Positions 8,117 to 38,564 of a stretch of DNA of 48,816 nucleotides are shown piece after piece. The notes beneath the pieces are model-generated. The model was not told the DNA's origin and did no database searches. It was given only the letters and a program-made list of their open reading frames with translations. The DNA comes from Candidatus Woesearchaeota archaeon (GTDB lineage Archaea > Nanobdellota > Nanobdellia > SCGC-AAA011-G17 > JACPNG01). Location: positions 1-48,816 of the forward strand of contig JACQNI010000025.1 in NCBI GenBank assembly GCA_016203135.1, given 5' to 3'. The position numbers were made by a program, and so were the translations under genes. How positions within the stretch are numbered: the stretch's first letter is position 1; each line of letters begins with the position of its first letter.

Positions 8117-8137
8117 AATAATTAGAAATAAAGAAAA

Positions 8138-8145
8138 TTTATAAA
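8138..8145. promoter_or_regulatory. palindromic TATA box TTTATAAA shared by divergent queC and aIF5A genes
   Basis: Centred about 25 nt from both start codons (8116 and 8167) in a 50-nt intergenic gap. A purine-rich GAAAA (BRE-like) stretch sits on its left. Confidence 0.4.
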
Positions 8146-8166
8146 GATAATTGAGTTTTAAGCAAT

Positions 8167-8361: not shown

Positions 8362-8395
8362 AAACTTTTAAAAGAATATTTCTTATTGAGTAATT

Positions 8396-9703: not shown

Positions 9704-9754
9704 TAAGTTATTTTTCTCATAATATTTTTAAAGCTATTTATTTAATGTCTTTTT

Positions 9755-10858: not shown

Positions 10859-10859
10859 T

Positions 10860-13876: not shown

Positions 13877-13877
13877 T

Positions 13878-16514
13878 TTACTCCCTTACTTGATCCACTC
13901 TAGGATCTGGCAATTGAGTCCCATAAAATTCTTCAGGAACTTGAAGATCTTTAGGATAAGTTATTTCCCATATCTTTAAAGGTCCTATTAACCTCCCTTG
14001 ATAAATTGCTAAAGGAAAATTATTGCTGTCATCATAAACAACCTTAAAATTTTCATTTTGAACATTAAAAAGATAAAGCTCAGCAAACCTAGATTTCTTG
14101 ACATCTGGAGACAAATACAATCCGGCCCCAAGACCATTTAGATTATTATTGTCTTGAATATTAGGAATTAGCCTAAAACATCCTTGCAATGCATCCTTGT
14201 TATCAAACTCTATTTTTTGATTTCCAATATACAAGCAAGATAAAGGCACCCTTGCTTGATTTCCTTCATAAACTATAACAGCTTCTGGTTCTTTATCCAA
14301 ATTTCCGAGATTATCTAAACTATTCCCAGAAACACTTATTAAAAAAGCCCCTATCCCAGCGCTTCTGGCAGGATATAACTTTCCCTGATAGACAAAATCA
14401 TCATCTAGCGGAGTTCCCCCCTCATAAATCAATATAGAGCCATTTCTTCCCTCTTGTATCTGTGGATTTAAAACAAATGTGTTTATCCAGGAATATCTAT
14501 CATAGTTAACATCGCTCCCAATAGATGAAAAAGCAGGATACTTACCTATTTCATCAGAAACTATCAATAAATGGGTTGCATTATTTGCCTTAAGTAATTG
14601 CAAGGCTTCTATATCACTTTGTCCAGTCAATACATGCCTTCCAATCCAATAATTTATAGCCCCCCTTGAATTACCCCCATCGCTTAAAGTGGCCCTATTA
14701 GCCCCATATTGTACCAAATATCCATAATCCCACCAATGTGCAAAAACAGCAGTTTCTGGAGTATTTTTCTTAACCCAATCCATAGCCACTTGCCATTGCT
14801 GATTATATACTGGCCCAGAATAAGATGCAATAGCCATAGATGAGCTTGCAAAAGAATACACCATAAATATAAGCAAATATAAAACAGCAGCATATATTCC
14901 TATTTTAAATATATTTGATTTTAGATTATGATAAGCATAGTCAAAAGCCCATACCAAGATATAAGCAACCAAAATTGTTGTTACAGGAGCTAGAATTAAC
15001 ATTAATCTTACAGCAGACCTTCCAGCAACTATCATTAGAGTCAAAAAGATAAGCATGAATATGTAGGTCTTGTCTATGCTTAATATTTCCTGATATGCCT
15101 CTTTATTTTTATAATATGTATAAAGATAATACCAAATAATTATTGATCCAAATAAGATTAAAGATCCAATATAAACAACCTTTGATAGATTACTTACCCC
15201 ATTAAAAGTGGAGCTTGAAGAATATCTGCTGAATATAAATCCAAATAAAAATAATGAATATAAAATAGTGGCCTTTATCCTATTTTTCTTGAAATGTTTT
15301 AAAGCCCCATAGAACATTAAAATAGCCCCAGCCAAAAACGACCAAAAATAAGTCAATCCAAATTCATTTGCCCAGTCTCTTATATAAGGCTGATGGCTTT
15401 CAGCAACAGTCAAGGCCCATCTTGATTTCCCAAAAGGAGCAATCATGTCAACATATATGTTAGCTATCTTATCATATATAAAAGAAAACCCAAAAAATAA
15501 AACATAGAATATTAATGCCAAAATAATAGCAAAGAAAAAAGCGACAAACCCTTTTGGATATTTCCCATGTATCTTTTCCTTGATTCTGAATATGTCAAGA
15601 TTGTATATAAGATAAAAAACTATTCCAACGAAAAATGTAAATATCATTAAACCAGAGGTAAAAGAATTTACAAAAGTCCCGATTATTGGATATCTTCCTT
15701 GTCCAAAAATATTCATTGTTGCTATGGCAAAGATCATCCAGGAACTATATGATAAAAAGTCATTCTTCCTGAATTTATCCAATAATATTTCAACTAAAGC
15801 AAATAATCCAATGGTTAAAAAGATAAAATTTACCCCTCCCCAAACCAGTCCAGTCATTCCAGTAGTTATCCCTGACAATATTCCTAATATAATTCCATTT
15901 CTCAGCCTTTTTGATTTCCATGCAGAAACATACAAGTAATAAGCCATGAACATAAAAGCTAAAGCTAAAGCCTCTTTATCTGAAAAGCCAAGCATTGTCC
16001 TATGCAAAAAACTAGGCATAGTAGCCAAAAAGGCGCTTGCAACTAAAGCTATTCTATAATCAAAAAGCTTCCTTACAAATAAAAAAAAGAATATTATTGC
16101 AATAACAAAGGCTATTGGCGGATAATATATGTCTGCTTGTGCTATAGTAACAGCTGGATTAAAAAAGCTCCAGAATTTATATAGATAAAAGATAAAATAG
16201 CTCAATAAGCTGAATTCGCTTAAGCTTTCAAAACCCAATGGATAATATCTTAAGACATCTACTTGCGGTAACATTCCATTCAAAGCAATATCGTTTACAT
16301 ATCTTAGAATGACTAAAGCATCCAAGTCAGAAGGAATATACTGTCCATTTGCTACATCTTTTAATAAGCCTATATTTCTAAGTCTTATAAGGAATCCAAA
16401 TATGACTATGGCAGCCAATATAATGTATTGCCATGAATTAGAAAACCTTCCTTTAAATAATCTTAATAATTTCTCTTTTCTTTTCTCTAGTGTATTCTCT
16501 ATAGTCCCTTCCAT
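13878..16514 (-). CDS. aglB: archaeal oligosaccharyltransferase AglB (STT3 family)
   Basis: 878 aa. About 13 TM helices followed by the hallmark WWDYGY motif (FAHWWDYGYLVQYG) and a large C-terminal domain. Confidence 0.9.
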   Translation of the reverse strand: MEGTIENTLEKRKEKLLRLFKGRFSNSWQYIILAAIVIFGFLIRLRNIGLLKDVANGQYIPSDLDALVILRYVNDIALNGMLPQVDVLRYYPLGFESLSEFSLLSYFIFYLYKFWSFFNPAVTIAQADIYYPPIAFVIAIIFFFLFVRKLFDYRIALVASAFLATMPSFLHRTMLGFSDKEALALAFMFMAYYLYVSAWKSKRLRNGIILGILSGITTGMTGLVWGGVNFIFLTIGLFALVEILLDKFRKNDFLSYSSWMIFAIATMNIFGQGRYPIIGTFVNSFTSGLMIFTFFVGIVFYLIYNLDIFRIKEKIHGKYPKGFVAFFFAIILALIFYVLFFGFSFIYDKIANIYVDMIAPFGKSRWALTVAESHQPYIRDWANEFGLTYFWSFLAGAILMFYGALKHFKKNRIKATILYSLFLFGFIFSRYSSSSTFNGVSNLSKVVYIGSLILFGSIIIWYYLYTYYKNKEAYQEILSIDKTYIFMLIFLTLMIVAGRSAVRLMLILAPVTTILVAYILVWAFDYAYHNLKSNIFKIGIYAAVLYLLIFMVYSFASSSMAIASYSGPVYNQQWQVAMDWVKKNTPETAVFAHWWDYGYLVQYGANRATLSDGGNSRGAINYWIGRHVLTGQSDIEALQLLKANNATHLLIVSDEIGKYPAFSSIGSDVNYDRYSWINTFVLNPQIQEGRNGSILIYEGGTPLDDDFVYQGKLYPARSAGIGAFLISVSGNSLDNLGNLDKEPEAVIVYEGNQARVPLSCLYIGNQKIEFDNKDALQGCFRLIPNIQDNNNLNGLGAGLYLSPDVKKSRFAELYLFNVQNENFKVVYDDSNNFPLAIYQGRLIGPLKIWEITYPKDLQVPEEFYGTQLPDPRVDQVRE

Positions 16515-16560: not shown

Positions 16561-16606
16561 TTGAAAATAAAATAGAAAAAGAGAAAAAAAGCTATTTAAG
16601 CTTTTT
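16561..16606 (-). terminator. hairpin plus oligo-T terminator after the S-layer gene
   Basis: The minus strand reads TAA-AAAGCT-TAAAT-AGCTTTTT (8-bp stem, 5-nt loop) followed by TTTTTTTCTCTTTTTCTATTTTATTTT. Confidence 0.45.
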
Positions 16607-18848
16607 ATTCTACTGTTATGTCTGTCAAGCTTGTACCCTTGACCAAGGCTTCTGAACCAGTCAATGTGTAATCTTCATGGTTAGCAAGCACTTTTGCAGC
16701 TCTTCTTGTGTCCATTGCATCATACCCTGCAACTACCATAGCTACCTTGTTTCCATTGTCAACAAGTCTTATGATAGCTTCTCCAGGGCTATATGTTGCT
16801 CTGAAATCGTCTGCAGTTCCAATAAATGTTCTTGCAACAGAGTTTATAGCTGGTCCTCCAACAACAATCAAGTTATAGTTTGCTACATTTGTTACTTCAG
16901 TATCCAACAATGTCCTTGGATTGATGTCTGCAACACTACAAACCTCTCCAGCACTTGAACCTCCAAGTGTACTTGGACCTCTTATTACAATATTTCCTTG
17001 TACTTGATCTCCAGGAATGCTTACCTTGACTTCATCACTAGCTCCATTTGACTTTGGATCCTTTATGACAATACCATATTTTGTTCTATGATCTTCATCC
17101 TTTGTACCAATAGTAGTTAATGCAGGACCCATCCAAACAAGTTCTCCAGCTTCTTCACTTGATGCAGTTGTACCCAAAGAGGTCAATAAACTATTAGTAG
17201 TGCTATCATTTCTCCATACAGTTATTATATCATCAACACCACCAGCCAAATCAGAATCTGTATCTCCTTGTATATCCAATGTTAAGTTCATTCCATGTGC
17301 ACCTGTATCCAAATCTAAATCAAATGCAACATTTGTACTCTTTGTGTCTTTGAAGTCAATTTCCATGAAGTTATTTGATGTAAGACTTCCATTTCCAGCA
17401 AAGTACTTCTTATTTGTCTCTGTATCCTTATAGAATACTGAAAAGTTTCCTAGAGCATTATCCTTGACTATCCATACTTCATCTGTCTTAACATCCTTTG
17501 ACAGGTTATCAACTGCTTGTAATACCCCATCTTTAAGTTTCAATGATTCTTTTACACTTGACTTAATCCTAACAGTATCTCTAGATGTATAGCCAGAAAC
17601 TGAATCTGTGAAATCTACCCTCTTTTCAAGACTAATATCTAAGTCCATATAATTGTCGTCTGCAACAGTCACGCTATCAAAGCATAGGCTTACATAGTTA
17701 TTTGGTAAGTCTAAGCAATCTCCAGACATCAATGCATCTCCATCTGCTCCATCAACCCATCTCCAGTCATTCTCAACTCCAAGGCTTATTCCTCCAACCA
17801 TAATAGATCCGTCTGCACCGCCTCCAATAGTGGTAGTACTCGAAGATGTTAAATTGCCTATGTCCCATACCCATTTAGGATCATTATCATCCTCTCCAAT
17901 ATATTCGTCACTATCTACATAACTTTGGGTTGCATCTTGACCAATAACCAATGTAGCTGATCTTTCCCCTCTGGTGTCTGTATAGAATGACTCATCATTT
18001 GTAATTTCTATACCATTGACTGTTCTTGTTGATCCAGATGAAATTGTTTCTTGAACTCCGTCTACATCTACAACAATAGCTCCACCAGATCCTACATTCT
18101 GCAAGGTTATCTTTTTACTGTTAACAGTAACCACATCGTCTATATCCATAAAATATTCAGTTCCAACTTGTGCTGTGAACTTTGTGGCTGAGTCTGTTTT
18201 TGTAATCTTTATTGTCTTACCCAAGAATTTTATTTCCAATGGGTCTGAAGACGATGTACCATTCAGGTTTATTGTCTCATCAAATTTATAATAATATTTT
18301 ATACCATCCCTTTCAACCTCTACAACAACATTGCTTTCATAATCATCATCAGATGCAGTCAAACTTGATTGTACACTAACATTATTTGTTCTACTAAATA
18401 TTAAAGCATCGCTTACATCATAATCTGCACTCTTGAAGTTTACTGTTGTATCTACAAATCCATCTAGATCAGAATCATCTAGTTCTCTATCTAGCTGATT
18501 GGTTGCAACAATATTGCTTCCAATAGGAACATCTTCGCTCTCTCCACCACTAATAGTAACAGTTCCATCGCCACTAGGACTGCAGTCTTTAGCCTCAAAC
18601 TGTAAATTTGTAGCTATATCTACCATCCCTAATGTATCAGAAGCTGCTGCATTCTCACCAACAACAAATGCATTAGAACTATCATAGTCACCACCAACAA
18701 CAAAGGGTGATGGATAACTCCCTAAATCTAAACCTGCTGCTTGACCCAAAGCACCACTAGCACTCAGTCCAAGCATTGCGCCACCAATACCTATAGCGGC
18801 GACTCTTTTTATAGTCTGTCTTGTTTTAAGCAAAAACTTTTCTTGCAT
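16605..18848 (-). CDS. S-layer / major surface glycoprotein candidate
   Basis: A signal peptide (AAIGIGGAMLGLSASGALGQAAG) precedes an acidic, Thr/Ser/Asp/Gly-rich body with no Cys-rich or TM regions. I count 8 N-x-S/T sequons. The C-terminal NLIVVGGPAINSVA...VAGYDAMDTRRAAKVLAN block resembles archaeal S-layer proteins. The region is visibly less AT-rich than its surroundings. I prefer ATG 18848, which sits 7 nt from a GGAGGTG, over the track TTG at 18854. Confidence 0.7.
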   Translation of the reverse strand: MQEKFLLKTRQTIKRVAAIGIGGAMLGLSASGALGQAAGLDLGSYPSPFVVGGDYDSSNAFVVGENAAASDTLGMVDIATNLQFEAKDCSPSGDGTVTISGGESEDVPIGSNIVATNQLDRELDDSDLDGFVDTTVNFKSADYDVSDALIFSRTNNVSVQSSLTASDDDYESNVVVEVERDGIKYYYKFDETINLNGTSSSDPLEIKFLGKTIKITKTDSATKFTAQVGTEYFMDIDDVVTVNSKKITLQNVGSGGAIVVDVDGVQETISSGSTRTVNGIEITNDESFYTDTRGERSATLVIGQDATQSYVDSDEYIGEDDNDPKWVWDIGNLTSSSTTTIGGGADGSIMVGGISLGVENDWRWVDGADGDALMSGDCLDLPNNYVSLCFDSVTVADDNYMDLDISLEKRVDFTDSVSGYTSRDTVRIKSSVKESLKLKDGVLQAVDNLSKDVKTDEVWIVKDNALGNFSVFYKDTETNKKYFAGNGSLTSNNFMEIDFKDTKSTNVAFDLDLDTGAHGMNLTLDIQGDTDSDLAGGVDDIITVWRNDSTTNSLLTSLGTTASSEEAGELVWMGPALTTIGTKDEDHRTKYGIVIKDPKSNGASDEVKVSIPGDQVQGNIVIRGPSTLGGSSAGEVCSVADINPRTLLDTEVTNVANYNLIVVGGPAINSVARTFIGTADDFRATYSPGEAIIRLVDNGNKVAMVVAGYDAMDTRRAAKVLANHEDYTLTGSEALVKGTSLTDITVE

Positions 18849-18855
18849 TAACAAA

Positions 18856-18862
18856 CACCTCC
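18856..18862 (-). promoter_or_regulatory. Shine-Dalgarno GGAGGTG of the S-layer gene
   Basis: The reverse complement of CACCTCC lies 7 nt upstream of ATG 18848. The 234-nt upstream spacer contains TTTATAAA-type TATA candidates, implying a long leader. Confidence 0.5.
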
Positions 18863-19088
18863 ATTTTTGTGTTTCTTAACCATAATGGTTTTTTGTCTTT
18901 CTCTTAAACATTTTTTATATTAAAGAGATTAAGTTTATTGTGTTAATCCTTTCTTTATAAATATTTTGGTTTTAAAGAGCATACTAATCGGTTAATTCCA
19001 TAATATAACAGCTACACAAAGCCTTAAACCTAAGTTTAGCTATTAAAAAAATTGATTTTTAGTAACCACTTTTTTAAGGTTACATTGC

Positions 19089-19502
19089 CTAACATATTAA
19101 TATTTTTGCCTCGATATACCTTGTATTAAAGCTGTCAGCAATTCCAGTATTACAGCTCCCAAGCCTATTATATTCATATTCCTGTGTTTTTATAGAAAGC
19201 CTATAATCCCTATCTAATTTACTCAATATGTTTCCTATCTCTTTGTCAAGTAGCTCTTTACAATCCATACTACATATAACCTTTCCAGTACTACAATCTT
19301 CAATTATTTCCTTTATCTGCTTGTCACAATTTACAGGTGTGTAAAACATCATGGCTCTTAAAAAATATGAACTTTCTACACTTTGCCTTAACTCTTGATT
19401 ATTATTGTTTTGTCCAGAAAAGGATATATAGAAAAAAAATATCACTATGAATAATATTACAATAACCAATAATCCAATTACCTCTGTTTGTGCCTTTTTC
19501 AT
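19089..19502 (-). CDS. type IV pilin-like protein (class III signal peptide), Cys-containing
   Basis: 137 aa. The N-terminus MKKAQTEVIGLLVIVILFIVIFFF is a basic-Ala/Gly-Gln prepilin-type motif followed by a hydrophobic helix. Confidence 0.5.
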   Translation of the reverse strand: MKKAQTEVIGLLVIVILFIVIFFFYISFSGQNNNNQELRQSVESSYFLRAMMFYTPVNCDKQIKEIIEDCSTGKVICSMDCKELLDKEIGNILSKLDRDYRLSIKTQEYEYNRLGSCNTGIADSFNTRYIEAKILIC

Positions 19503-19975
19503 TTATAATCCTCTATAACAAGCTTGCCTACCCTATATTCATTATCTGAATAATACAATGGAACTATAACAGATATTATGTCCTTGCTTCTAAAGTTTGG
19601 TCTTGGATTTTCATATAAAACAACAGCTTCTTCAGTTCCTGGATAAACATCCATGATTGTTATATTCCGAAAACCAAGCCTGCTAAAATAAAGTCCTTTG
19701 TTCTCGTTTATCTTATCGGTTTTTACCTTGTTCATATCTATGCAGTTCTGTTCTATGCCATTAAAACTGCATTCTATCTCAGGCATTGTCAAAATGCTTG
19801 CTAATAAAATATCTCGATCAATATCATTTAATCCAGATTCTGTTTTACCTATCTCAGCCAAGTAAAACCTGTAATAATAGAATATTCCAATTACCAATAT
19901 AAGGATTACAACTACTAAAACCATTATCATCTCAATCATTCCAACTTGTCCTTTCTTAGAATAAATATATCCCAC
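19499..19975 (-). CDS. type IV pilin-like protein (class III signal peptide)
   Basis: 158 aa from GTG 19975, beginning ..SKKGQVGMIEMIMVLVVVILILVIG. An alternative ATG at 19939 would delete the KKGQ motif. Confidence 0.5.
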   Translation of the reverse strand: MGYIYSKKGQVGMIEMIMVLVVVILILVIGIFYYYRFYLAEIGKTESGLNDIDRDILLASILTMPEIECSFNGIEQNCIDMNKVKTDKINENKGLYFSRLGFRNITIMDVYPGTEEAVVLYENPRPNFRSKDIISVIVPLYYSDNEYRVGKLVIEDYK

Positions 19976-20912
19976 AGTTCCCTCTTGCTTCTTTGTTTGA
20001 ATCTACCAGTTGATCTATCTTGGTCATTTTTGCATCAACATCATTTGAGTTAAGATTTTCTAGCTTAAGATTCTTTAATCCATTTAAGCCATTATTCAAC
20101 CCAGTCATTAAACCAGATCCAAATGATCCCTGTCCTGAACATATAGAAGCTAATGTATTTGCCTTCTCTTGATATATCTCTGAAACCCTGGTTAATCTTT
20201 CAAAGGCCTTATTTACATCACATTTATAATCTTCCAAACTATCAGAGAATATAGCCCCATAAAGCATCTCCTTGCCTATGAAAATACTTTCTCCATCAGA
20301 GAATTTAACTTTTCCTCGACATTTATAATTATCAGTTAAATCATCACAAGTATCTTTATAGCCATATATAACTACCCCATTTTCAATCTGATTTATATCC
20401 TGCCCAACAATTACCCTTTTTACCTTATCTCCATTATTAACAAATCTCTTAGGTATGAACTCAACATTATTCATATCTCCCCTTAAGTTTTTAGCAAGAT
20501 TATCTGTTCCCTCAATTACTATTTTTGTATCCCCAGAAACATAAAAGAAATTAGTAACCGGAAAAGGCATTCTCCATTTTGCTGTCCAGATATTTAATTT
20601 ATCCCCTTCAATATCCCTCTGAGAAAATATTATGTTTTCATTGTTTACTGGATTTACATTGTTTACTTGAACCTTGCCACAAGTAAATCTTATTTTCACA
20701 TCTTCATTCAAGTCTATTGTCTTGTCAGCGTTGCTTGAAACAGAAAAGCTATCAAAATTGCTATTTAATGTCCTTGACAAAACAGCAGAGTTTAATTCTT
20801 CTTTTAAAAATATTTGCTGCCTTGCAAAGTTTATGAAGAAAATAAGTATTATTGCCCCAGCAACAGCAATCAAAATATACTTAAAAGTCTCTTCCACACC
20901 CCTTTTATCCAT
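19956..20912 (-). CDS. secreted/membrane-anchored protein with pilin-like N-terminus
   Basis: About 318 aa from ATG 20912 (the track uses TTG 20921). The N-terminus reads MDKRGVEETFKYILIAVAGAIILIFFINF. First gene of a three-gene overlapping set. Confidence 0.45.
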   Translation of the reverse strand: MDKRGVEETFKYILIAVAGAIILIFFINFARQQIFLKEELNSAVLSRTLNSNFDSFSVSSNADKTIDLNEDVKIRFTCGKVQVNNVNPVNNENIIFSQRDIEGDKLNIWTAKWRMPFPVTNFFYVSGDTKIVIEGTDNLAKNLRGDMNNVEFIPKRFVNNGDKVKRVIVGQDINQIENGVVIYGYKDTCDDLTDNYKCRGKVKFSDGESIFIGKEMLYGAIFSDSLEDYKCDVNKAFERLTRVSEIYQEKANTLASICSGQGSFGSGLMTGLNNGLNGLKNLKLENLNSNDVDAKMTKIDQLVDSNKEARGNCGIYLF

Positions 20913-20962
20913 GAATTTCAATAATGAGCAATATTAATAAATTCTTCTATTAAAAACTAATT

Positions 20963-21946
20963 ATGGACAAGGAAAAGACAGCCAGAAAGAATGTACTAAG
21001 AAAGTCACAAGAGCCATCAAAATATACAAAAATCAAAGGTTATGATTTTGATAAAAAGCTTAATTATGATGAGTTATTAGATTCATATTCATCTTCAGGT
21101 TTTCAGGCAACTAACTTTGCTAAAGCCATAGAGATAATTAACAAAATGATAAAAGATGATTGCAAGATTTATTTAGGATATACTTCAAACATGGTTAGTT
21201 CTGGTTTAAGGGATGTTTTTAGATATCTTGTAAAAAATAAAATGGTTGATATAATAGTTACAACCGGCGGAGGTATTGAAGAAGATATAATAAAATGCCT
21301 TGGGGATTTTATTCTTGGGGATTTTGACTTATCTGGAAAAGAATTAAGAAAAAAAGGCATAAACAGAATAGGCAATATTTTAGTTCCAAATTCTAGATAC
21401 TGTGACTTCGAAGATTTTTTCATGCCTTTATTGAATAAAGTCTACAAAGAAAAAAAATCTATCTCTCCATCAGAGCTTACCTATCTTCTCGGAAAAGAAA
21501 TAAACAATCAGGATTCAATATACTATTGGGCATATAAAAATAATATTCCTGTTTTTTCTCCAGCAATAATAGATGGCTCAATGGGAGACATGATCTATTT
21601 CTTCAAGTATCAAAAGCCAGACTTTGAGATTAATATTGCAGAAGACATGAAAAAATTAAATGATATGACCATAGATGCAAAGAAAACTGGCTTGATAATT
21701 CTCGGCTCTGGTTTGATAAAGCACCATATTTTAAATGCAAACATGATGAGAAACGGAGCAGATTATGTTGTTTATATTAACAATTCCCAGGAATTTGATG
21801 GTAGTGATGCAGGAGCAAAAATTGAGGAAGCTGTTTCATGGGGAAAAGTATTGCCTGAAAAAAATTACATAAAAGTTTTTGGTGATGCAACAATATTATT
21901 TCCATTGATAGTAGCAAAAACATTTAAAAAAGATGATGAACAATGA
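20963..21946 (+). CDS. dhs: deoxyhypusine synthase
   Basis: 327 aa. TSNMVSSGLRD, VTTGGGIEEDIIK and the catalytic lysine context EAVSWGKV. Confidence 0.9.
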   Translation: MDKEKTARKNVLRKSQEPSKYTKIKGYDFDKKLNYDELLDSYSSSGFQATNFAKAIEIINKMIKDDCKIYLGYTSNMVSSGLRDVFRYLVKNKMVDIIVTTGGGIEEDIIKCLGDFILGDFDLSGKELRKKGINRIGNILVPNSRYCDFEDFFMPLLNKVYKEKKSISPSELTYLLGKEINNQDSIYYWAYKNNIPVFSPAIIDGSMGDMIYFFKYQKPDFEINIAEDMKKLNDMTIDAKKTGLIILGSGLIKHHILNANMMRNGADYVVYINNSQEFDGSDAGAKIEEAVSWGKVLPEKNYIKVFGDATILFPLIVAKTFKKDDEQ

Positions 21947-22422
21947 ACACAAACAGAAGAGAATTCTTGCTTGAGCTTATGATCCTTAAAGTCCTGCAAG
22001 ATGAAACGCCTTTAAAAACATTGGCAGAACAAGTAGCTCAGAAAACAGAAAAAATAACTACAGAAGGCAATGGCATAATAAAACTTTACAGGCATTTCAC
22101 AACAATTTCCTTAAGAATACATACAAAAGATTTTATTGCTGCTGTTAACAAAGAAGATAATTATCTTGCAATAGATTACATTCCAAAGAACTCTGAAGAA
22201 ATAAATAATCTTGTAGAAGGTGCTGGCAGGTTCATTGATTTAGGTATTGATGCTAAGTTTAAATATCAACATGAGCTGATTCCTAGTTATGCATTTCATG
22301 ATGGAAGAAAAATAAAACCCGCTACAGATCTTGCCTTATTTCTTGACTTGTATAAAAATGCATTAAATGCAATAGATAGTTTTTACACAAAAAGAAATCT
22401 AAGGGTATACGACAAAGCTTAA
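21943..22422 (+). CDS. hypothetical protein, ATGA-coupled to deoxyhypusine synthase
   Basis: 159 aa with no recognisable motif. Its 3' end overlaps the convergent giant gene by 24 nt. Confidence 0.5.
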   Translation: MNTNRREFLLELMILKVLQDETPLKTLAEQVAQKTEKITTEGNGIIKLYRHFTTISLRIHTKDFIAAVNKEDNYLAIDYIPKNSEEINNLVEGAGRFIDLGIDAKFKYQHELIPSYAFHDGRKIKPATDLALFLDLYKNALNAIDSFYTKRNLRVYDKA

Positions 22423-25400
22423 TTGATTGTCAAAAACATCCTTGCATATGATATTTAACTTGTCAGCTAAAGGAGCGCTATGAATTCCTTGAGACTTTGT
22501 CATTAAAGTTCCTGTTCCAAAATTAAACTGTTTATTGCTGAATTCGCAGTTAACTTCTTCATCTAATTCAATATTCAAGCTGCTTGCTGTAGAATATATC
22601 CTTAATATTTCTGGCCTGCTTAAGTCAACAGCAACATCAAAGCTGGTCTTTCCCTTAGCTTCATTGCCAGCTATGTCTTGACATGTAACAAAGTAATTAT
22701 ATCTTGCAGTTCCAAGTATCAGGCTTTGCTCATGCACCTTGCTGTTTGTGTTGATAAACTCTACTTTATTAAAAAATTCATCGCTTTCTTTCTCGCTGAA
22801 AGCGCATATTGCTTTTCCATTTTCTGCACCATTAGAAGTTACAACTTTTAGTGTTATATTTCCATTGAATATTGTTCCTGTAGGTTCAACTTTATCAATA
22901 TTCAATTTGCTTGTTTTTGTTAAGCTATAAGCAAAGCTCTGCTGCATAACATTCCTGTCTTTCTCCTCTTTTCCAGGCTGGTCTTTGCATTTAAAGAAGA
23001 ATTTATTTTCTCCTGTTGTTAAGCTACCTAACTTTGTTTTGCATTCAAACAATCCATAATGCAAAGCGTTTGTTATAAATCCGCTTGTTTGGCATTCAAA
23101 ATCATTTTTCATATTCCCATAATCTAAATCACTTTTATCCCATTTACATTCACTTGGTTCATTAACAAATATATCTACAGAAGTCTCATTGATATCACTT
23201 CTAATAAATGCCTTGTTTAAAGGACTTACCTCTTCAATTTTTGGTGGTGTTAAATCTGGTCCTGGTTTTACATTAAACCTTATGAAGTAATCAGCTTCGT
23301 TCTGATTTCCAGCAGCATCTTGGCATTTTATATATAATGTATGCTCTCCCTGGTTTGTCAATGCCAATGCCTCTTTGCTTGTTAGTTCAGCAGGCAAGTT
23401 CAATTCAATCTGGTGTTCATTAATGTATAAGTTTGTTCCAAAGAATGCAGTCATGTCATCATATTTCTTTCCTAGATCTTTATCAAACCTGCATTGTGCT
23501 GGCTCATCTGTTAATATTCCTAAAGTTACAGGAGTAAACGGCTCTATTTTTTCAGTTAATCTATACCCATTTGGAGTTTCATCTATGTTTCCCTTGATCA
23601 CATTTCTAAACGGAGTTATTTTCGGTGATCTAACATCATCAATATTTATTGCAACGCATTTTTCTTCTTTCTTTCCCTTATTTATCAAGCCACATTGCTG
23701 CCCTAAGCTTTTGCATCTATATTCAGAACAAGGTTTTTTAGGATCTTGATTGCATAATTCACATTTACTTCCACCTTTTGGAGGCTGCCATATCCCACAT
23801 CCAATCTGATAATTTTTTTCTTTTGTTTGTGCAAGTACAACATCAACTATAGAATAAACAGTATAAGCCCATAAAGCAATATTTACTGCTGCAAATATTC
23901 TTCCTAAATTACTTAATATAAAAGGTTTTCCTGCTACAGTTGTTGTTCCAGTTATTGCCCCTTTAACACCAAATCCAGATAAAAAAGGAACCCCTAAAAC
24001 AGATTTAGTTAATACTGCCCCACCACTAGATTTTAAAAGTACTCCTAATCCAATCAATGCAGTCAAAGCAATAGGCCCTCCTGGAGTAAAGTAATTCCAG
24101 CTGCTTGGTATATTCTTATTTACATCAGTAGAAGTTAACTTGCTAAAGTCTCCAAGATCTCTTTTTTGTAGTTTATATCCATCAAAATACAATCCATCTT
24201 TTTCCCTTTCAGAAGAAGCTGTATTTGTATATCCATCCAAAGAAGCATCTCCAGCTATGTTAAAGTAAGCCCCGCAGTCTCCCAAAGACTTACAATAATT
24301 ATTTCCAGCTATTACCCACTCCTGTGTTGTGCAATGCTCATTACCGTCAGGAGTAATTTTCCAAGAATCCACTCCAAATATTCTAGAAGCCCCTCCCCTT
24401 CTCCATTTAACATTGCATTCTAAACTTCCAGCTTCACAAACAGAATCCTTTGCTTTTGGAGAAAAGCTGCTTAATGAAACATCAGCTGCCTTTCCCCTTG
24501 TTGTTGATTCAATAAATTTAATACCCTCATTCCAAAATTTTATTCCTGGAGGTACATCAGGAGTGCAAACCCCCCCATAAGTTCTTAATATTTCTTGAGG
24601 CAATGCAACAGCGCTTATTCCCGAAGGATTCCAGAAACAATCCCTTGCAGCCCTGTCTTCACAACATTTCCTTGCACAGCAAGCAGTCTGTGCTTCATTC
24701 ACTTCTGTATCTTTAAAAGTATCTTCCAAGCCATCACATTCTCCTCCACATAACTCAGCTTCATTGCATTCAGTACAACTCTCCCACCTGTTAAATCTAC
24801 AAGCTGCTTCATTAAATCCTTGTTGTATTCCTGCTTCTTGTAATGAATTATCATTTATCTTGTCTTCAAAGCATAATTCTTCCCTAAAATCCTTGCAAGG
24901 CTCTACAATTTCTTCTCCATTTATACAAACAGTTCTAAAGTGTCTGCTTCCAACTAAGTCTCTTCCTTGTCCAACAGCCCCATCATATAAGCACCAAGAT
25001 TCTCCTGATTTTTTAGCACTTCCAGCACTAGGACTTGGAGCGCTTTTAGTTATATCTATACAAGCTGTTGACTTACAAATAAAATTTCCAACTATTGGCT
25101 TGACAGAAGTTGCATTCCCACAAATTGTTCCAGCAGTATAATCACAGTTCCCGCATCTTGGATCATTTGCATTAGCCTTGCAAATTTCTTGTTGTTGCTG
25201 ATCTGATAAAATAAATCCATTGTTGTAAGAAATTTCCTTGTTTGCATTGTAAATATTTTCTTTGTTTCCACAGCTGTCAAACCAATACACATCTTCTTCA
25301 GAGCATTTTGTTGTTTGTTGCTTTGCACATTCAGTTCCTAATGCTGAATTGCTGCATAAAAATCCCTTATGGAATCCAGTCTTAATTCCCTTAACATCTT

Positions 25401-25962
25401 TCTCTTGAACATTACAAAGCTGCTGGGTTGTTAAAACACATCTGCCATCTTCCTTTACACATGCCCCTAAATCTTCAGAAAAGCTCTTTTGCAAACATAA
25501 AGCCTCGCTTTGAATACTTTCATCAAAAACCATGTTTACATTTGGAAATTTTGCAGTTTCTAATTTGCATCTTGCTTGTGTTGTGAAAAATGCCTCATCC
25601 CCGATAATGCAGCATCCTTCTCTTGCTAATGGTATGTTACAATCTGCTGAATCAAAAAATTCTCCCTTCTTTGCAATGCAGTTTGCTTTTCCTACCTTCT
25701 TAAAGCATTTCCCTTCTGTTTCTATAAAACAGCTTCCAACCTTGCAAAAACTTGATTGTGCACAAGTAGCTGAAATCTCTCTCGAATTTTCTGCACATTT
25801 ATCTTTGCTTGTATATTGGCAAAATTCTCCATCAGTGGTTTTTTCACAGCATGTTTCTTGTTTTTGTGCAGAAACATTTTTTATATTCAATAAAGATATA
25901 GTAAAAACAGAGCTGATTAAGATTAATGCTAAAAATAAAGCCTTTATTTTTTTATCAATCAT
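22399..25962 (-). CDS. giant cysteine-rich surface/membrane protein with four C-terminal Ig-like repeats
   Basis: 1187 aa. The order is a signal peptide, a roughly 600-aa ectodomain with 47 Cys (manual count), a pair of TM helices (GGPIALTALIGLGVLL, IFAAVNIALWAYTVYSIVDVVLA), a Cys knot (CELCNQDPKKPCSEYRCKSLGQQC), then four repeats. Each repeat carries a ..EPxxC(R/K)(F/W).. and ..C(Q/K)DxxGN.. pattern. Confidence 0.8.
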   Translation of the reverse strand: MIDKKIKALFLALILISSVFTISLLNIKNVSAQKQETCCEKTTDGEFCQYTSKDKCAENSREISATCAQSSFCKVGSCFIETEGKCFKKVGKANCIAKKGEFFDSADCNIPLAREGCCIIGDEAFFTTQARCKLETAKFPNVNMVFDESIQSEALCLQKSFSEDLGACVKEDGRCVLTTQQLCNVQEKDVKGIKTGFHKGFLCSNSALGTECAKQQTTKCSEEDVYWFDSCGNKENIYNANKEISYNNGFILSDQQQQEICKANANDPRCGNCDYTAGTICGNATSVKPIVGNFICKSTACIDITKSAPSPSAGSAKKSGESWCLYDGAVGQGRDLVGSRHFRTVCINGEEIVEPCKDFREELCFEDKINDNSLQEAGIQQGFNEAACRFNRWESCTECNEAELCGGECDGLEDTFKDTEVNEAQTACCARKCCEDRAARDCFWNPSGISAVALPQEILRTYGGVCTPDVPPGIKFWNEGIKFIESTTRGKAADVSLSSFSPKAKDSVCEAGSLECNVKWRRGGASRIFGVDSWKITPDGNEHCTTQEWVIAGNNYCKSLGDCGAYFNIAGDASLDGYTNTASSEREKDGLYFDGYKLQKRDLGDFSKLTSTDVNKNIPSSWNYFTPGGPIALTALIGLGVLLKSSGGAVLTKSVLGVPFLSGFGVKGAITGTTTVAGKPFILSNLGRIFAAVNIALWAYTVYSIVDVVLAQTKEKNYQIGCGIWQPPKGGSKCELCNQDPKKPCSEYRCKSLGQQCGLINKGKKEEKCVAINIDDVRSPKITPFRNVIKGNIDETPNGYRLTEKIEPFTPVTLGILTDEPAQCRFDKDLGKKYDDMTAFFGTNLYINEHQIELNLPAELTSKEALALTNQGEHTLYIKCQDAAGNQNEADYFIRFNVKPGPDLTPPKIEEVSPLNKAFIRSDINETSVDIFVNEPSECKWDKSDLDYGNMKNDFECQTSGFITNALHYGLFECKTKLGSLTTGENKFFFKCKDQPGKEEKDRNVMQQSFAYSLTKTSKLNIDKVEPTGTIFNGNITLKVVTSNGAENGKAICAFSEKESDEFFNKVEFINTNSKVHEQSLILGTARYNYFVTCQDIAGNEAKGKTSFDVAVDLSRPEILRIYSTASSLNIELDEEVNCEFSNKQFNFGTGTLMTKSQGIHSAPLADKLNIICKDVFDNQLSFVVYP

Positions 25963-26738
25963 GCCGGCTCTCCCTCAACAGCAAATTGAAACACATAGCT
26001 ATTATCATCCCTTTTTACTTGATATACTTTATGTGGATATAATTTATTTAAGTATATCTTAAATTCTCCTTTTCTAAGCTGCATATAGCTTAATGTATCA
26101 AAAAATCCAAATGTTGCTTCATCATCTATTATATCTTGGCTTATTTCATATAACTCCCCCAAAGGATAATTAAAACTTTCTGTGAATTTATTCCTAGAAA
26201 CCATGTTATCTTTGCTTTTAAGAGTAACAGGATAATTTATATCTAGGATAACAGCCCTAGATTCAATTTTTGTTTTAACATCTAAAGTTCCAGTGGTTAT
26301 TTCATAGGGTTTAAATCTCTGAAAACTTGTAAAATCTAAACAGCCATTCAAGGATTGTTTTACATTCTCGCTGATTTGTGATTCCATCTCTTCTATTGTT
26401 AATAATCTGTTCATGCATGCTTCGTCATCAGGAATATTATAGCAAAGAAAACTTACTTCTGAATCTTTATATGATATGAAACTATAATCAACAGGTTCTA
26501 AATATCCCCCTTGTAATCCGATCTTTTCAATGATTTCATTTGCATTCTGCTCAGAGTCTCGATTCAAGCAGTCAATTATATTGCTTTCAATTTCATTCAA
26601 TTCCAGATTTAAATTTTCGGTAGTTGTTGGCAAAAAAATAGTTTTTCTTGCAACGAAAAAAAGACTTAAAATAACTACAATTACAATTCCAATAATTACA
26701 AATGCAGTAATCTGCCCTCTTTTTCCAAAAATAAACAT
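25959..26738 (-). CDS. type IV pilin-like protein (class III signal peptide), ATGA-coupled to the giant Cys-rich gene
   Basis: 259 aa. The N-terminus reads MFIFGKRGQITAFVIIGIVIVVILSLFF, and the body contains 5 Cys. Confidence 0.55.
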   Translation of the reverse strand: MFIFGKRGQITAFVIIGIVIVVILSLFFVARKTIFLPTTTENLNLELNEIESNIIDCLNRDSEQNANEIIEKIGLQGGYLEPVDYSFISYKDSEVSFLCYNIPDDEACMNRLLTIEEMESQISENVKQSLNGCLDFTSFQRFKPYEITTGTLDVKTKIESRAVILDINYPVTLKSKDNMVSRNKFTESFNYPLGELYEISQDIIDDEATFGFFDTLSYMQLRKGEFKIYLNKLYPHKVYQVKRDDNSYVFQFAVEGEPA

Positions 26739-26793
26739 ACTAGCTCTTATTTATCGAACTTATTGTTTATTTAAATATTTTGGTAAAGAATTC

Positions 26794-27609: not shown

Positions 27610-27927
27610 TTAAACTGAATCTAGATAAGTAGCTACTACAGAACTATCATCCTTTTTAATTTCTCTAGTATAATCCATTGCCCTTTTATATTTTTCATTA
27701 ACTCTAACGATTTCATTACTATTAACACTATATTTATTTGCTAACGATATATATCTATCATAAGCCCCACTCATAGTTTCTTTAAGCTTATCTAGTTCTG
27801 ATATATCTCTGGCACCTATGCATATATTTAAAGATAACTCAGAGAGTTTATTCTCCAATCTTTCTAATTCCCTGCCATCACTAAAAGCTTCTTCGCTAGT
27901 AGTTTTAAGACTAAGTATTGGGTACAT
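27610..27927 (-). CDS. small helical hypothetical protein (paralogue A)
   Basis: 105 aa. Shares GRELE.L, a helical middle region and (N/E)(Q/E)KY..AM.Y with 27975..28280. Confidence 0.55.
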   Translation of the reverse strand: MYPILSLKTTSEEAFSDGRELERLENKLSELSLNICIGARDISELDKLKETMSGAYDRYISLANKYSVNSNEIVRVNEKYKRAMDYTREIKKDDSSVVATYLDSV

Positions 27928-27974: not shown

Positions 27975-28280
27975 TTAATATAATCCATAGTGTTTAAGAT
28001 AATTCATAGCATCTACATATTTCTGATTAATTTCAAAGATATCAGGTCCATTAACTTCATACCGAGATCCAAGTTCCTCAAATCTCTTATGAACAATATC
28101 CATGGCCCTCTTTAAATATTTCCTAAGGTCCAAGTCATCTTTATTACTTAAATTAACATTACTTATACTAAATATTAATGTGTGCAAAGAAGATATTTGA
28201 TCTATTAATTTTTCTAGTTCCCTTCCTTCCTTGAATCCTGCTTTTTCTCTTTCACTCTTAAAATTAATTTCTGCATACAT
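27975..28280 (-). CDS. small helical hypothetical protein (paralogue B)
   Basis: 101 aa, a tandem paralogue of 27610..27927. Both share the leader TGAATTACTTTTAAA(A)ATGTA. Confidence 0.55.
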   Translation of the reverse strand: MYAEINFKSEREKAGFKEGRELEKLIDQISSLHTLIFSISNVNLSNKDDLDLRKYLKRAMDIVHKRFEELGSRYEVNGPDIFEINQKYVDAMNYLKHYGLY

Positions 28281-33254: not shown

Positions 33255-33962
33255 CTAGAACTCTCCATTATTGCACTCTTCTTCAAATATTTCCTTAAAG
33301 TCTTCACAAAAAACTTCAAACAATTTTTCCTTAGTCATTAATCCCTCATATTTTTTATCCCCAATAACTAAGCTAGGAGTTTTGGTAATATTATAAGAAG
33401 ATTTTATTATCTCTATTCCAGGTTCTCTTTCAAAGTCTGCGTCTATTGCAAATATCAATATCTTGTCTTGATATTTGTCCTTCAAAAAAGTTAATACATT
33501 TCCTTGCAGCACACAGTCATTACATTCTTGATTGGAGTAAAAGTATAATATTGGTATATCTTCTTGCAAGCAAAGTTCTCTTACTTGTATAGATAAAAGC
33601 CAGTATCTTAACTCAGATATCATATATGCCCTTTTCAAGTTTAAAAAGTTCTCATTATCCTCGCTTAATGTAGCAGTCAAATAATCTTCAAGTTGTTTTC
33701 TAGTCTTGTCAATTTCATTCAAATTATTTTCCAGTGTTTTCTGTGCAACAGGGCAGTTTTTTTCCCTGGAAAAAATATTAAGATATAGATACTGCAGCTG
33801 CAAGCTCTCAAGATCTAGGTTTTGTATTCTGCTCTTTTCTTCAATGGCCCCTTCCCTTGAATTAGTCAAAATTAATCCAAGAAATATCCCAAATATAAAA
33901 ATAACTAAAGTAATTATTCCTGCAATGATGTATATTCTGCTGGATATTTTTCTCTCTACCAT
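33255..33962 (-). CDS. membrane-anchored thioredoxin-fold CxxC protein (putative extracytoplasmic thiol-disulfide oxidoreductase)
   Basis: 235 aa. The order is an N-terminal TM helix, a coiled-coil segment, then YFYSNQECNDCVLQ (CxxC) and a ...KTPSLVIG... thioredoxin-like C-terminus. Confidence 0.6.
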   Translation of the reverse strand: MVERKISSRIYIIAGIITLVIFIFGIFLGLILTNSREGAIEEKSRIQNLDLESLQLQYLYLNIFSREKNCPVAQKTLENNLNEIDKTRKQLEDYLTATLSEDNENFLNLKRAYMISELRYWLLSIQVRELCLQEDIPILYFYSNQECNDCVLQGNVLTFLKDKYQDKILIFAIDADFEREPGIEIIKSSYNITKTPSLVIGDKKYEGLMTKEKLFEVFCEDFKEIFEEECNNGEF

Positions 33963-35209
33963 TTCTGAAATTTACCTCTGATAAGATCAAGAAAAACGCC
34001 AAACAATACTACAGAAGCAAGCACTGAATAAAATAATAAATAAGAAGGGATAGTTATATATCCATATCTTGACAAGGGTTCATTTGCATGTTTATGCGCA
34101 TATTTTATCAAGAATAAAGCCAAGATAAACAAAACAACAGCATAAAAATAACTTACCAAGTCTAAATTAATAAATGCAAAATTATCCATAAATCTTTTCA
34201 AGGGCATTACGAAATTAAAATCTGTCAAAGAAAGCACTTTAATTTTTGTTATTAGTGGCTGTATTAAATTTGAATACAAGACTACAGATATTACAAACAA
34301 AACAGCAACGCTTTCAAGCAATATTCTTGGCATTTGTATAAATCCAAAATCTCCATATTTTTTATTGAATGCCATGTTTCTATATTTTAATGCATTAAGA
34401 AATGTCCCTTTATACCATCTATTTCTTTGCCTGTAAAATGCCTTAAATGTCCCTGGAGCCTTTGTATAAACCTCTGTGTTAAATACTTGTATTATTTTGT
34501 AATGGTTTTTCTGCAATCTTAATGTTAATTCCAAATCCTCAACCAAGTTTTTTTCATCAAAACCTCCAAGATTCTCTATTGTTTCTTTTCTGTATGTGCT
34601 AAAAGGTCCTGGAGCGACATGCACACAGTCTAATATTGACATTAATCTTTTGTAAAATAAATTTACCAAGTACTCGCACCATTGTATTTTCTGCAATAAG
34701 TTTTTAGGATTGAATACCTTCATCAAGGGTAAAACCGCAGCAACATCATTGTCTTTGAATCTTGGTATTACTTTCTTCAATGCATCTTCCCTTATAATTG
34801 AATCAGAATCCATTGTCGTGAAAAATTCTCCATCAGCTATTTTTAAGGCTGCATTCAATGCAGATCCTTTTCCATGATTATTTTGATTTATCAGTTTTAT
34901 ATTAAATCCAGGATTTTCATTTATGGTTTTTTCTACAATCTCTTTTGTCTTGTCAGTGCTTCCATCATTCACAATAATAACCCCTAACTTCTCCCTGGGA
35001 TAATCAAGCCTTAACACAGAATTTATTGTTTCAGAAATATTTTTTTCTTCATTATAAGCTGGAATTGCAATTGTAGCTTTTGGATATATCTCCATTTTTT
35101 CTTCAGTTTCAACTATATTTTTTTCCAAAAAGACTAAAAGCCAGAAGATTATCAAGTAAAGAAAAAAGACATAAGACAGCCAAACAACTAAAACGCTAAA
35201 AGGTATCAT
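33956..35209 (-). CDS. processive GT2 beta-glycan synthase (PgaC/chitin-synthase-like)
   Basis: 417 aa. IAIPAYNEE, VNDGSTD, MDSDS, VEDLEL and the processivity motif QRNRW (QxxRW), flanked by TM helices. Confidence 0.8.
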   Translation of the reverse strand: MIPFSVLVVWLSYVFFLYLIIFWLLVFLEKNIVETEEKMEIYPKATIAIPAYNEEKNISETINSVLRLDYPREKLGVIIVNDGSTDKTKEIVEKTINENPGFNIKLINQNNHGKGSALNAALKIADGEFFTTMDSDSIIREDALKKVIPRFKDNDVAAVLPLMKVFNPKNLLQKIQWCEYLVNLFYKRLMSILDCVHVAPGPFSTYRKETIENLGGFDEKNLVEDLELTLRLQKNHYKIIQVFNTEVYTKAPGTFKAFYRQRNRWYKGTFLNALKYRNMAFNKKYGDFGFIQMPRILLESVAVLFVISVVLYSNLIQPLITKIKVLSLTDFNFVMPLKRFMDNFAFINLDLVSYFYAVVLFILALFLIKYAHKHANEPLSRYGYITIPSYLLFYSVLASVVLFGVFLDLIRGKFQKW

Positions 35210-35211
35210 AA

Positions 35212-38056: not shown

Positions 38057-38564
38057 CCTTATTACCGCTTTTTTGTTCGAGTTCTGCAAATTTTAATTTA
38101 ATCTCATTCTCAACCAAATCAAAATAATCAAAAAACTTTGATGTTAACTTCAAAGTCCTTGTTCTTCCCTGTCTTTCAGAGGTTATAAATTCTTGCTCCT
38201 TTAAGGCCTTTATATGATCATAAGCCCCATTTCCCCTCATCTTTATTATTTCAGATTGTAATACTGGATTTTTGTATGCAATCAAAGCAAGTGTTTTTGT
38301 TGTAGAAGCATCTAATTCAGAATTGTCTAATAAGCTTGTTGTCAAATAATTGAACTCTTTTTTTATGTTTAGCTTCCATTTGTTGTTTTCTTCAAATATC
38401 TGCAAAGCAGAACTACTTTTCTCATATTCTTTCATTAATTCATTTATTGCATCTTTAACCAATCCAGTAGATCCTATGTTGCATAGTTTTGATATTTCTT
38501 CTACATCCATGAATCTTCCTGTAACAAATAGGATAGCTTCTATCTTTCTCTTTGTATCTTCCAT
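38043..38564 (-). CDS. scpB: segregation and condensation protein B (ScpB)
   Basis: 173 aa. IEAILFVTGRFMDVEEISKLC... and tandem winged-helix layout. Confidence 0.7.
   Translation of the reverse strand: MEDTKRKIEAILFVTGRFMDVEEISKLCNIGSTGLVKDAINELMKEYEKSSSALQIFEENNKWKLNIKKEFNYLTTSLLDNSELDASTTKTLALIAYKNPVLQSEIIKMRGNGAYDHIKALKEQEFITSERQGRTRTLKLTSKFFDYFDLVENEIKLKFAELEQKSGNKDEQK

Follow-up and report, generated by a model that had tools for sequence, protein, structure and literature searches.

Few DPANN archaea are as abundant, or as poorly understood, as Woesearchaeota and Pacearchaeota. To our knowledge neither has been obtained in pure culture, and we know of almost nothing on how their envelopes are built or how they contact their hosts. 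The DNA analyzed here (the window) is a stretch of 48,816 nt from a Candidatus Woesearchaeota archaeon (assembly GCA_016203135.1, contig JACQNI010000025.1, positions 1 to 48,816). It is archaeal, has a G+C content of about 30%, and encodes PCNA, deoxyhypusine synthase (DHS), an aRF1 with an intein-like insertion, AglB/STT3, and many glycosyltransferases. The subject of this study is a pair of genes on the minus strand, designated B (25959–26738, 259 residues) and C (22399–25962, 1187 residues), together with the conserved cluster in which they lie. B encodes a pilin-like protein and C a large, cysteine-rich exported protein, and the stop codon of B overlaps the start codon of C in the sequence ATGA; the coordinates and the overlap are those given in the first-pass annotation of the same DNA. 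The designation A is used for a paralog of C, D, E, and F for additional genes with pilin-like products, and G for an S-layer protein gene.

C belongs to a large family. The closest homologs have E=0; 319 word-indexed homologs have lengths of 1,000–1,450 residues, and every one of them is annotated "hypothetical." The family comprises at least 2,209 clusters at 50% identity (E≤1e-30) and occurs in 479 stretches among GTDB species representatives. From these representatives 78 loci were fetched, which come solely from Woesearchaeota, Pacearchaeota, or Nanoarchaeia, and gene order was compared across these loci and three long contigs of relatives. One locus, L072 (JAUUWR010000018.1), has the GenBank title "MAG: bacterium" yet contains an archaeal PCNA gene and the Woesearchaeota/Pacearchaeota cluster, and is probably mislabelled. 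Ratios of nonsynonymous to synonymous substitution rates (dN/dS) were computed between the window and L082, a 93%-identical relative. The values are 0.07 for B and 0.13 for the whole of C; within C they are 0.089 for the ectodomain, 0.56 for the central region, and 0.055 for the knot and the immunoglobulin-like (Ig-like) region. Both proteins are under strong purifying selection, and the E=0 homologs together with dN/dS values far below 1 identify B and C as real genes. Because the protein sequence of C is under strong constraint, open reading frames (ORFs) on the opposite strand inside C, for example 25532–26062 on the plus strand, were regarded as shadow ORFs.

The first 32 residues of B (26643–26738, minus strand) comprise a short basic leader, a putative prepilin peptidase site, KRG/Q, and a very hydrophobic helix with a maximum Kyte-Doolittle 19-mer score of 3.3 (MFIFGKRG/QITAFVIIGIVIVVIL...; a slash marks a putative cleavage site here and below). 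Each of the residues Lys6, Gly8, Gln9, Thr11, and Phe13 is shared by at least 90% of 54 homologs, and the KRGQ-type motif occurs in 106 of the 108 B-family genes in the fetched loci. By these features the N terminus, recognized as prepilin-type in the first-pass annotation, reads as a textbook archaeal class III (prepilin-type) signal and is predicted to be cleaved. The helix is followed by a globular head of about 225 residues that has a mean column identity of 47% and four conserved Cys, a level of conservation that is unusually high for a pilin. The head corresponds to no curated family, and a sequence search of the PDB gave only a chance-level match. Between the stop codon of PCNA and the start of B lie 55 bp (26739–26793, minus strand) in which an A/T-rich TATA-like element (AAATATTTAAATA) can be read; this region may be the promoter of a B–C operon. 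A scan of the window for promoters and terminators, made with a bacterial-type promoter model, performed no better than chance.

C contains 64 Cys, which make up 5.4% of its residues as compared with 1.3% in the long ORFs of the window, and 47 of the 64 lie within residues 36–640. In 121 homologs, 55 of these Cys are kept at a frequency of at least 90%; Cys405, Cys409, Cys428, and Cys429 fall within a lineage-specific insert. Residues 1–32 (25867–25962, minus strand) form a predicted Sec-type signal peptide with a putative cleavage site at ...NIKNVSA/QKQ, and a hydrophobic N-terminal segment, for which the maximum Kyte-Doolittle 19-mer score is 2.3, is present in 114 of the 121 homologs. The disulfide-rich ectodomain that follows (residues 33–612, 24127–25866, minus strand) was modeled by AlphaFold2 with a mean predicted local distance difference test score (pLDDT) of 86.2 and a predicted template modeling score of 0.63. 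In Foldseek searches with this model the best E-values were 1.2 against 350,542 PDB chains and 0.92 against BFVD, neither of which represents a match, and sequence and profile searches of the PDB, Pfam, and NCBIfam matched no enzyme or S-layer family or any other entry. The ectodomain of C, a protein in which the first-pass annotation had recognized no catalytic motif, is thus related to no known enzyme or S-layer family by sequence or fold in these libraries, and the model indicates that it has no known fold among PDB and BFVD entries. Its conservation peaks at residues 196–247 (VYWFDSCGNxENIY...) and 320–365 (GESWC...DLVGSRHYR...CKDFREE). These cores include invariant Asp, Glu, Arg, His, and Asn residues, and the invariant polar clusters are Trp227/Asp229/Asn233/Glu235, Glu321/Trp323/Asp335/Ser339/Arg340/His341/Arg343, and Asp358/Arg360/Glu361/Glu362. 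The first ~160 residues of C resemble four short hairpin modules of the form CC...G.C...C; support for repeats in this segment is weak, with one pair at 89% hhalign probability and the remaining pairs low. Binding of an Fe-S or other metal cluster by C was considered and rejected because there are zero CxxCxxCxxxC motifs and few conserved His. A relationship of the ectodomain to fusexins or viral glycoproteins was also rejected because no PDB or BFVD fold matched; for the three-domain, β-rich fold of class II fusogens, Foldseek returned a lone match to hantavirus Gc (E=7.3, probability 0.00).

The central region of C (residues 613–711, 23830–24126, minus strand) is Gly-rich (11.6%), fast-evolving, and variable in length across the family, from 107 to 384 residues. 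AlphaFold predicts helices at residues 629–644 and 685–709 with low pLDDT, the values being below 50 over residues 613–688. The median maximum Kyte-Doolittle 19-mer scores of the two helices in the 121 homologs are 1.50 and 1.43 and reach 1.6 or more in about 35%, as compared with 0.9 for the soluble domains, 2.3 for the signal peptide of C, and 3.3 for the helix of B. On this evidence the segment may be a membrane hairpin, a membrane-dipping element, or a flexible linker, and its hydropathy suggests that C has no convincing membrane anchor of its own. The first-pass annotation had placed two transmembrane (TM) helices here and had proposed that they anchor the protein in mid-chain. Two helices are indeed predicted, but their low pLDDT and marginal hydrophobicity leave their TM character doubtful, and anchoring in mid-chain is not supported, the helices being weakly hydrophobic and situated in a fast-evolving Gly-rich linker.

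Beyond the central region lies a compact Cys knot (residues 712–782, 23617–23829, minus strand) with seven invariant Cys at positions 722, 734, 737, 745, 750, 757, and 769. The remainder of the chain (residues 783–1187, 22402–23616, minus strand) consists of four Ig-like domains, each with conserved Cys and a C(Q/K)DxxGN motif. AlphaFold models these repeats as β-sandwiches, and Foldseek pairs them generically with tandem Ig/FN3 arrays, which also dominate the matches of the full-length model. The score of C from the window against Big_13 (PF19077) is 26.1 bits, just under the cut-off of 27, and many homologs carry precomputed PF19077 matches; a profile search of the PDB with C gave only a weak match to an Ig-like domain of SiiE (E=0.17). 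When C, B, D, E, and F were scanned against Pfam and NCBIfam, nothing scored above threshold. The Cys counts, the signal peptide, the Cys knot (here confined to residues 722–769 by its invariant Cys), and the four Ig-like repeats with their paired Cys had all been described in the first-pass annotation and are upheld by these data.

The association of B with C is conserved. In 52 of 63 loci a C-type gene has B directly upstream, and the commonest junction is an overlap of 4 nt (ATGA); an A-type gene has B directly upstream in 2 of 28. The NCBI locus tags of B and C are consecutive in several relatives. Pacearchaeota have two tandem B–C pairs, and each B resembles its positional counterparts in other genomes more than it does the other B of its own genome (15 of 15 such loci), from which it follows that the B–C pairs were duplicated long ago and have stayed together. 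A dedicated pilin-like partner for C, postulated in the first-pass annotation with conserved synteny as its check, is therefore borne out by both the pairing and the co-divergence. The second C copy of Pacearchaeota is present as two genes, one for a secreted N-terminal part and one for a C-terminal part with its own N-terminal anchor, and the split point coincides exactly with the central region. Split copies occur in L036, L045, L047, L051, L054, L055, L057, L062, and others (for example L051, 14536–19528). Their halves are a Cys-rich N-terminal protein of 500–600 residues and a C-terminal protein of about 730 residues with an anchor (NKRG/K...); one or two small ORFs lie between them, and an additional pilin-like gene of about 165 residues often follows.

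B is also found with other partners. Downstream sequence was sufficient for 101 B genes, and in 78 of these the next gene is C or A. The downstream partners of 11 other B genes were checked: they have 421–793 residues, 5 of the 11 are joined to B by a 4-nt overlap, and 10 of the 11 have no hydrophobic segment beyond the N-terminal signal peptide. No similarity could be detected between the groups, at least six in number, into which these partners divide, and the C-family hidden Markov model matches none of them at a threshold as permissive as E≤10. A C-terminal trypsin-like protease domain is present in two, and Pfam gives no match for the others; no docking motif common to C and these partners is obvious by eye. 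Loci with such additional pairs are L060 (14151–17055), L066 (15129–18283), L067 (624–5815), L070 (3314–6270 and 17479–22469), L076 (18336–21130), L034, and L050. To couple B translationally to a large exported protein that lacks an anchor thus appears, from gene arrangement, to be a recurrent design, and this recurrence gives B the look of a pilin-like adaptor for secreted cargo. C would be its universal cargo and, probably, the ancestral one.

The pair belongs to a larger cluster whose gene order, PCNA–(A)–B–C–D–E–F–G, is conserved. The first-pass annotation covered the B–C pair and missed the rest of the cluster in the window (D, E, F, and G, 16605–20921) as well as the A paralog. A is a Cys-rich protein of 1,020–1,190 residues that is about 30% identical to C; it is absent from the window and is on a separate contig in several metagenome-assembled genomes. 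In the window PCNA is immediately upstream of B. In L082 an IS605-family OrfB/TnpB gene (Cas12f-like TNB) and a small DUF7557 gene are located between PCNA and B (1851–3144), an element that the window lacks. Just upstream of PCNA the window has two tandem paralogs of 105 and 101 residues (27610–27927 and 27975–28280, both minus strand) that are 34% identical (E=8e-15) and have no family assignment.

D (19956–20921, minus strand) heads a conserved D-E-F-G unit and encodes a pilin-like protein of 321 residues (MDKRG/VEETFKYILIAVAG...), with its true start probably at the ATG at 20912, downstream of the mechanical ORF start. E (19499–19975, minus strand), which encodes a pilin-like protein of 158 residues (SKKG/QVGMIEMIMVLVVV...), overlaps D by 20 nt and is itself overlapped by 4 nt by F (19089–19502, minus strand), whose pilin-like product has 137 residues (MKKA/QTEVIGLLVIVILF...). 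Pilin-like N termini are found in 37 of 44 D, 36 of 39 E, and 36 of 39 F proteins, and comparisons with hhalign relate B, D, E, and F through the N-terminal segment only. G (16605–18854, minus strand) encodes an S-layer protein of 749 residues that matches Pfam S_layer_C (PF05124) with 55.5 bits against a cut-off of 23.9; translation probably begins at the ATG at 18848, after a GGAGGTG Shine-Dalgarno sequence. It has a signal peptide, visible as an N-terminal hydrophobic segment, and no membrane anchor, and a TM segment after residue 80 is present in 0 of 23 homologs. E and F come after D in 35 of 36 loci, G comes after F in 21 of 22, and in 30 of 40 a D gene lies within 7 kb beyond the last C-type gene. 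The cluster is near-universal and syntenic across Woesearchaeota and Pacearchaeota, and its current annotation is entirely "hypothetical." Between C and D, on the opposite strand, the window has DHS and an ATGA-coupled ORF of 159 residues without a family match (20963–22422, plus strand). The 3′ end of this ORF overlaps that of C convergently by 24 nt, and the same convergent ORF is present in L082.

Both flanks of the envelope cluster are dense in genes for surface glycosylation (352–16514 and 33956–38089), including those for an epimerase, GT2, GT9, a PMT-like protein, and a polysaccharide deacetylase. AglB/STT3 is encoded at 13878–16514, and a second membrane protein with weak resemblance to AglB_core at 36581–38089. 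Farther along, the aRF1 gene (38599–40077, minus strand) has a Hint/mini-intein-like insertion of about 130 residues immediately past the catalytic GGQ motif (...KAGGQ/CVMPDTLI..., the slash here marking the insertion point); its matches to Pfam Intein_splicing and Hint are below threshold, and the eRF1_2 domain is broken into two stretches. Scans of the window for tRNAs and Rfam families gave no match, and a search for tandem repeats gave nothing above chance.

Archaeal surface filaments and S-layers are normally glycosylated, and the frequency of N-glycosylation sequons (N-x-S/T) was compared family-wide with the expectation from shuffled sequences. The observed and expected counts are 204 and 616 for the C ectodomain, 18 and 69 for B, and 16 and 104 for D, a 3- to 6-fold depletion; those for the S-layer protein G, which is not depleted, are 198 and 176, and those for PCNA, a cytoplasmic control, are 41 and 54. 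C from the window has 4 sequons as compared with 10.5 expected, and only 74 of 5,000 shuffles were as low. Since AglB is encoded beside the cluster and filaments and S-layers usually carry glycans, the depletion fits buried, interface-rich proteins, possibly situated under a glycosylated S-layer canopy. A membrane-anchored thioredoxin-like protein with a CNDC motif (33255–33962, minus strand) is a plausible candidate, judged by its motif, for an extracytoplasmic disulfide catalyst acting on Cys-rich envelope proteins.

We favor the interpretation that the B–C cluster is a lineage-specific cell-envelope gene cluster of Woesearchaeales and Pacearchaeales in which B would be a pilin-like adaptor or anchor and C its cargo, the two being members of a permanent envelope complex that would also include D, E, F, frequently A, and G, which has no anchor. 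The probability of this reading is roughly 0.5. The ATGA overlap indicates that B and C would be produced from one transcript by translational coupling, perhaps in 1:1 stoichiometry. C would be exported through Sec, and both of its halves are expected to fold outside the cell as disulfide-rich modules because the 55 conserved Cys span both halves; the fast-evolving Gly-rich segment that links them would dip into the membrane weakly at most. B would be inserted in the membrane, its leader would be cut at KRG/Q by a class III (prepilin) peptidase, and its hydrophobic helix would anchor the complex either directly in the membrane or in a short pilin-like helix bundle with D, E, and F. The head of B, which is conserved, may bind C. 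Anchoring and binding by B are proposed because the genes are strictly paired, because they co-diverge, and because B is coupled in the same manner to unrelated proteins whose only hydrophobic segment is a signal peptide. B and C, often with A, and then D, E, and F, all encoded with G, could constitute a permanent base or pillar that lies beneath the S-layer or is fixed to it, with the four Ig-like domains of C as a spacer of about 15 nm and the novel ectodomain as a conserved binding, possibly catalytic, surface. That G is itself anchorless, with a signal peptide and no later TM segment in any of the 23 homologs, implies a need for an anchor and speaks for this arrangement.

Several observations weigh against it. 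The link between C and D (30 of 40 loci) is looser than the links inside each unit, the B–C and D-E-F-G units of the window are split by DHS and the 159-residue ORF, and at least one relative (L004) has no adjacent G. No gene for a prepilin peptidase, a type IV pilus ATPase, or a platform protein is present in the 48.8-kb window or within ~8 kb of the cluster in three relatives. Curated models for pilins and class III signals (Class_IIIsignal, Pilin_N, and NCBIfam) matched none of the proteins of the window, the 54 B homologs, or 9 homologs of D, E, and F. The invariant polar clusters of the ectodomain could mean an enzyme or a receptor rather than a scaffold, and the depletion of sequons may have other causes, such as folding constraints of dense disulfide-rich modules. 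Cleavage of B, binding of C by B, assembly of D, E, and F, and contact with G are inferred from synteny and sequence features.

A different arrangement of the same components would be a pilus tip: a filament of the type IV pilus kind would be primed by B, D, E, and F as minor pilins, and C would be a large non-pilin tip protein for attachment to hosts or surfaces. The four to five pilin-like genes of the cluster and its non-pilin exported protein of about 1,200 residues are arranged like fimU-pilVWXY1E, C has no robust membrane anchor, B is paired with varied secreted cargo, and archaeal type IV pilus loci often include S-layer-like proteins (PMC4858521; bioRxiv 10.64898/2026.04.22.720090). 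Ig-like arrays are typical of adhesins, and the Foldseek and profile matches of C include the GhpA grappling hook and the BIg domain of SiiE; moreover, Woesearchaeota are presumed episymbionts. However, genes for an assembly ATPase or a platform protein are absent from the window and from the ~8 kb around the cluster in the three relatives, and C has neither sequence nor fold similarity to PilY1, with no β-propeller or vWA match in Pfam, NCBIfam, or Foldseek searches. Adhesins that face a host usually diversify, whereas the ectodomain has a dN/dS of 0.09 and near-invariant Cys and polar motifs, and exposed archaeal pilins are usually glycosylated, whereas sequons are depleted in B, D, and the C ectodomain. 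The cluster also occupies a fixed, housekeeping-like genome position. We consider a pilus-tip adhesin possible but clearly less probable than an envelope complex. More generally, the evidence leans away from a variable host adhesin, given the fixed site by PCNA with pilin-like and S-layer genes, the conserved ectodomain, and the sequon depletion, and a core complex associated with the envelope or S-layer is favored over it. The host-adhesion device anchored in mid-chain that the first-pass annotation envisaged does not follow from the evidence.

The ectodomain of C might instead be catalytic, for example a hydrolase of envelope or host polymers, or ligand-binding, and B a mere tether. The invariant polar clusters and the strong purifying selection on the ectodomain are in keeping with this, as are the two alternative B partners with trypsin-like protease domains, which suggest that B tethers enzymes. 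An enzyme or receptor is nevertheless unlikely, because no enzyme family is matched by sequence (Pfam, NCBIfam, and PDB) or by fold (PDB and BFVD), the conserved positions are mostly Cys, Gly, and aromatic residues, as is typical of structural modules, and some 22 disulfides and four Ig-like domains look structural. Even less probable is a membrane-contact or fusion device, in which the Gly/Ala-rich central segments would serve as fusion peptides or dipping loops that bridge symbiont and host membranes while the ectodomain recognizes the host. By our own comparison the composition of residues 625–711 resembles that of viral fusion peptides, the central segments are more hydrophobic than soluble domains and less so than true TM helices, and one report (PMC11329633) describes DPANN archaea as forming cytoplasmic bridges with hosts; but functional fusion peptides are unlike a central region that is the least conserved part of the protein, with a dN/dS of 0.56 and lengths from 107 to 384 residues, the PDB and BFVD searches revealed no fold in common with fusexins or with fusogens of class I, II, or III, and no heptad-repeat or trimerization signature was seen. 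That B and C are chance ORFs, or a miscalled and functionally unlinked pair, is effectively refuted by E=0 homologs, thousands of clusters, dN/dS values far below 1, conserved synteny, co-divergence, and high-confidence structure models.

Some components of the proposed envelope complex are of known kinds, namely proteins that bear a class III signal peptide, Ig-like repeats, and an S-layer protein, and archaeal type IV filament loci with S-layer-like accessory proteins have already been described (PMC4858521; bioRxiv 10.64898/2026.04.22.720090). The A/C family, the B adaptor family with its ATGA-coupled cargo, and the PCNA-linked cluster were not found in the curated libraries or the literature searched, which agrees with the suggestion in the first-pass annotation of an undescribed system. 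In a metatranscriptome, S-layer and archaellin genes were among the most highly expressed Woesearchaeota genes; that work did not address the cluster (PMC11606122). A more speculative and distinctly less certain extension of the favored reading is that the cluster encodes an unrecognized envelope machine of Woesearchaeales and Pacearchaeales, in which B adaptors would plug anchorless secreted proteins into a short pseudopilus-like stalk of D, E, and F that lies under or passes through the S-layer (G), with C (and its paralog A) as the universal cargo bearing a new-fold ectodomain of 580 residues with a conserved functional site. If true, this would be a new principle of archaeal surface-protein display, and the machine could form the core of the DPANN host-contact apparatus. 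The family is of interest in itself because its more than 2,000 clusters at 50% identity share a main domain without a known fold. The cluster also contains a recurrent adaptor-cargo arrangement, with a pilin-like gene coupled by ATGA to a large anchorless secreted protein; it offers a hypothesis for how an anchorless S-layer protein stays on the cell and provides concrete targets for studying the DPANN cell envelope.

In bacteria the fimU-pilVWXY1E operon encodes minor pilins and PilY1, and GspH/I/J/K form the tip complex of type II secretion. The present cluster is similar to these in that four to five prepilin-type proteins of graded sizes are encoded together. It also resembles them in including a pilin-dependent (here, by proposal) non-pilin exported protein of about 1,100–1,200 residues and in its separation from assembly ATPase genes. 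In contrast with PilY1, C has neither the β-propeller (Neisseria_PilC) nor a vWA domain and no similarity in sequence or fold. The archaeal host, the link to an S-layer gene, the disulfide-rich cargo with a novel fold and Ig-like repeats, and the coupling of the adaptor B to unrelated cargos are further differences. Archaeal type IV filament loci (Makarova et al. 2016, PMC4858521; bioRxiv 10.64898/2026.04.22.720090) likewise combine class III signal proteins with S-layer-like and large Ig-fold secreted proteins; however, they are defined by an ATPase and a TadC/platform gene, neither of which is linked here, and neither source mentions the A/C and B families.

The four C-terminal domains of C have the Ig-like fold and the D-x-A-G-N strand motif of repeats in Big_13, SiiE BIg, and GhpA proteins. 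The likeness is limited to these domains, at 8–12% identity, and the N-terminal 580 residues and the Cys knot have no counterpart. As in the SlaA/SlaB system of Sulfolobales, the gene for an anchorless S-layer canopy protein adjoins one or more genes for partners that are membrane-anchored (here, by proposal) and hold it above the membrane. There is no homology between the two systems: SlaB is one protein that has a coiled coil and, at its C terminus, a TM helix, whereas the candidate anchors here are pilin-like and giant Cys-rich proteins, and G, unlike the Sulfolobales proteins, belongs to the Methanococcales-type S_layer_C family. The favored reading also has an analogy in the Sulfolobus bindosome, which keeps non-filament proteins on the cell surface by way of the prepilin-type pathway. 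There the cargo, consisting of sugar-binding proteins, bears the class III signal itself, whereas here that signal is on the separate, translationally coupled adaptor B, and the cargo carries an ordinary Sec signal.

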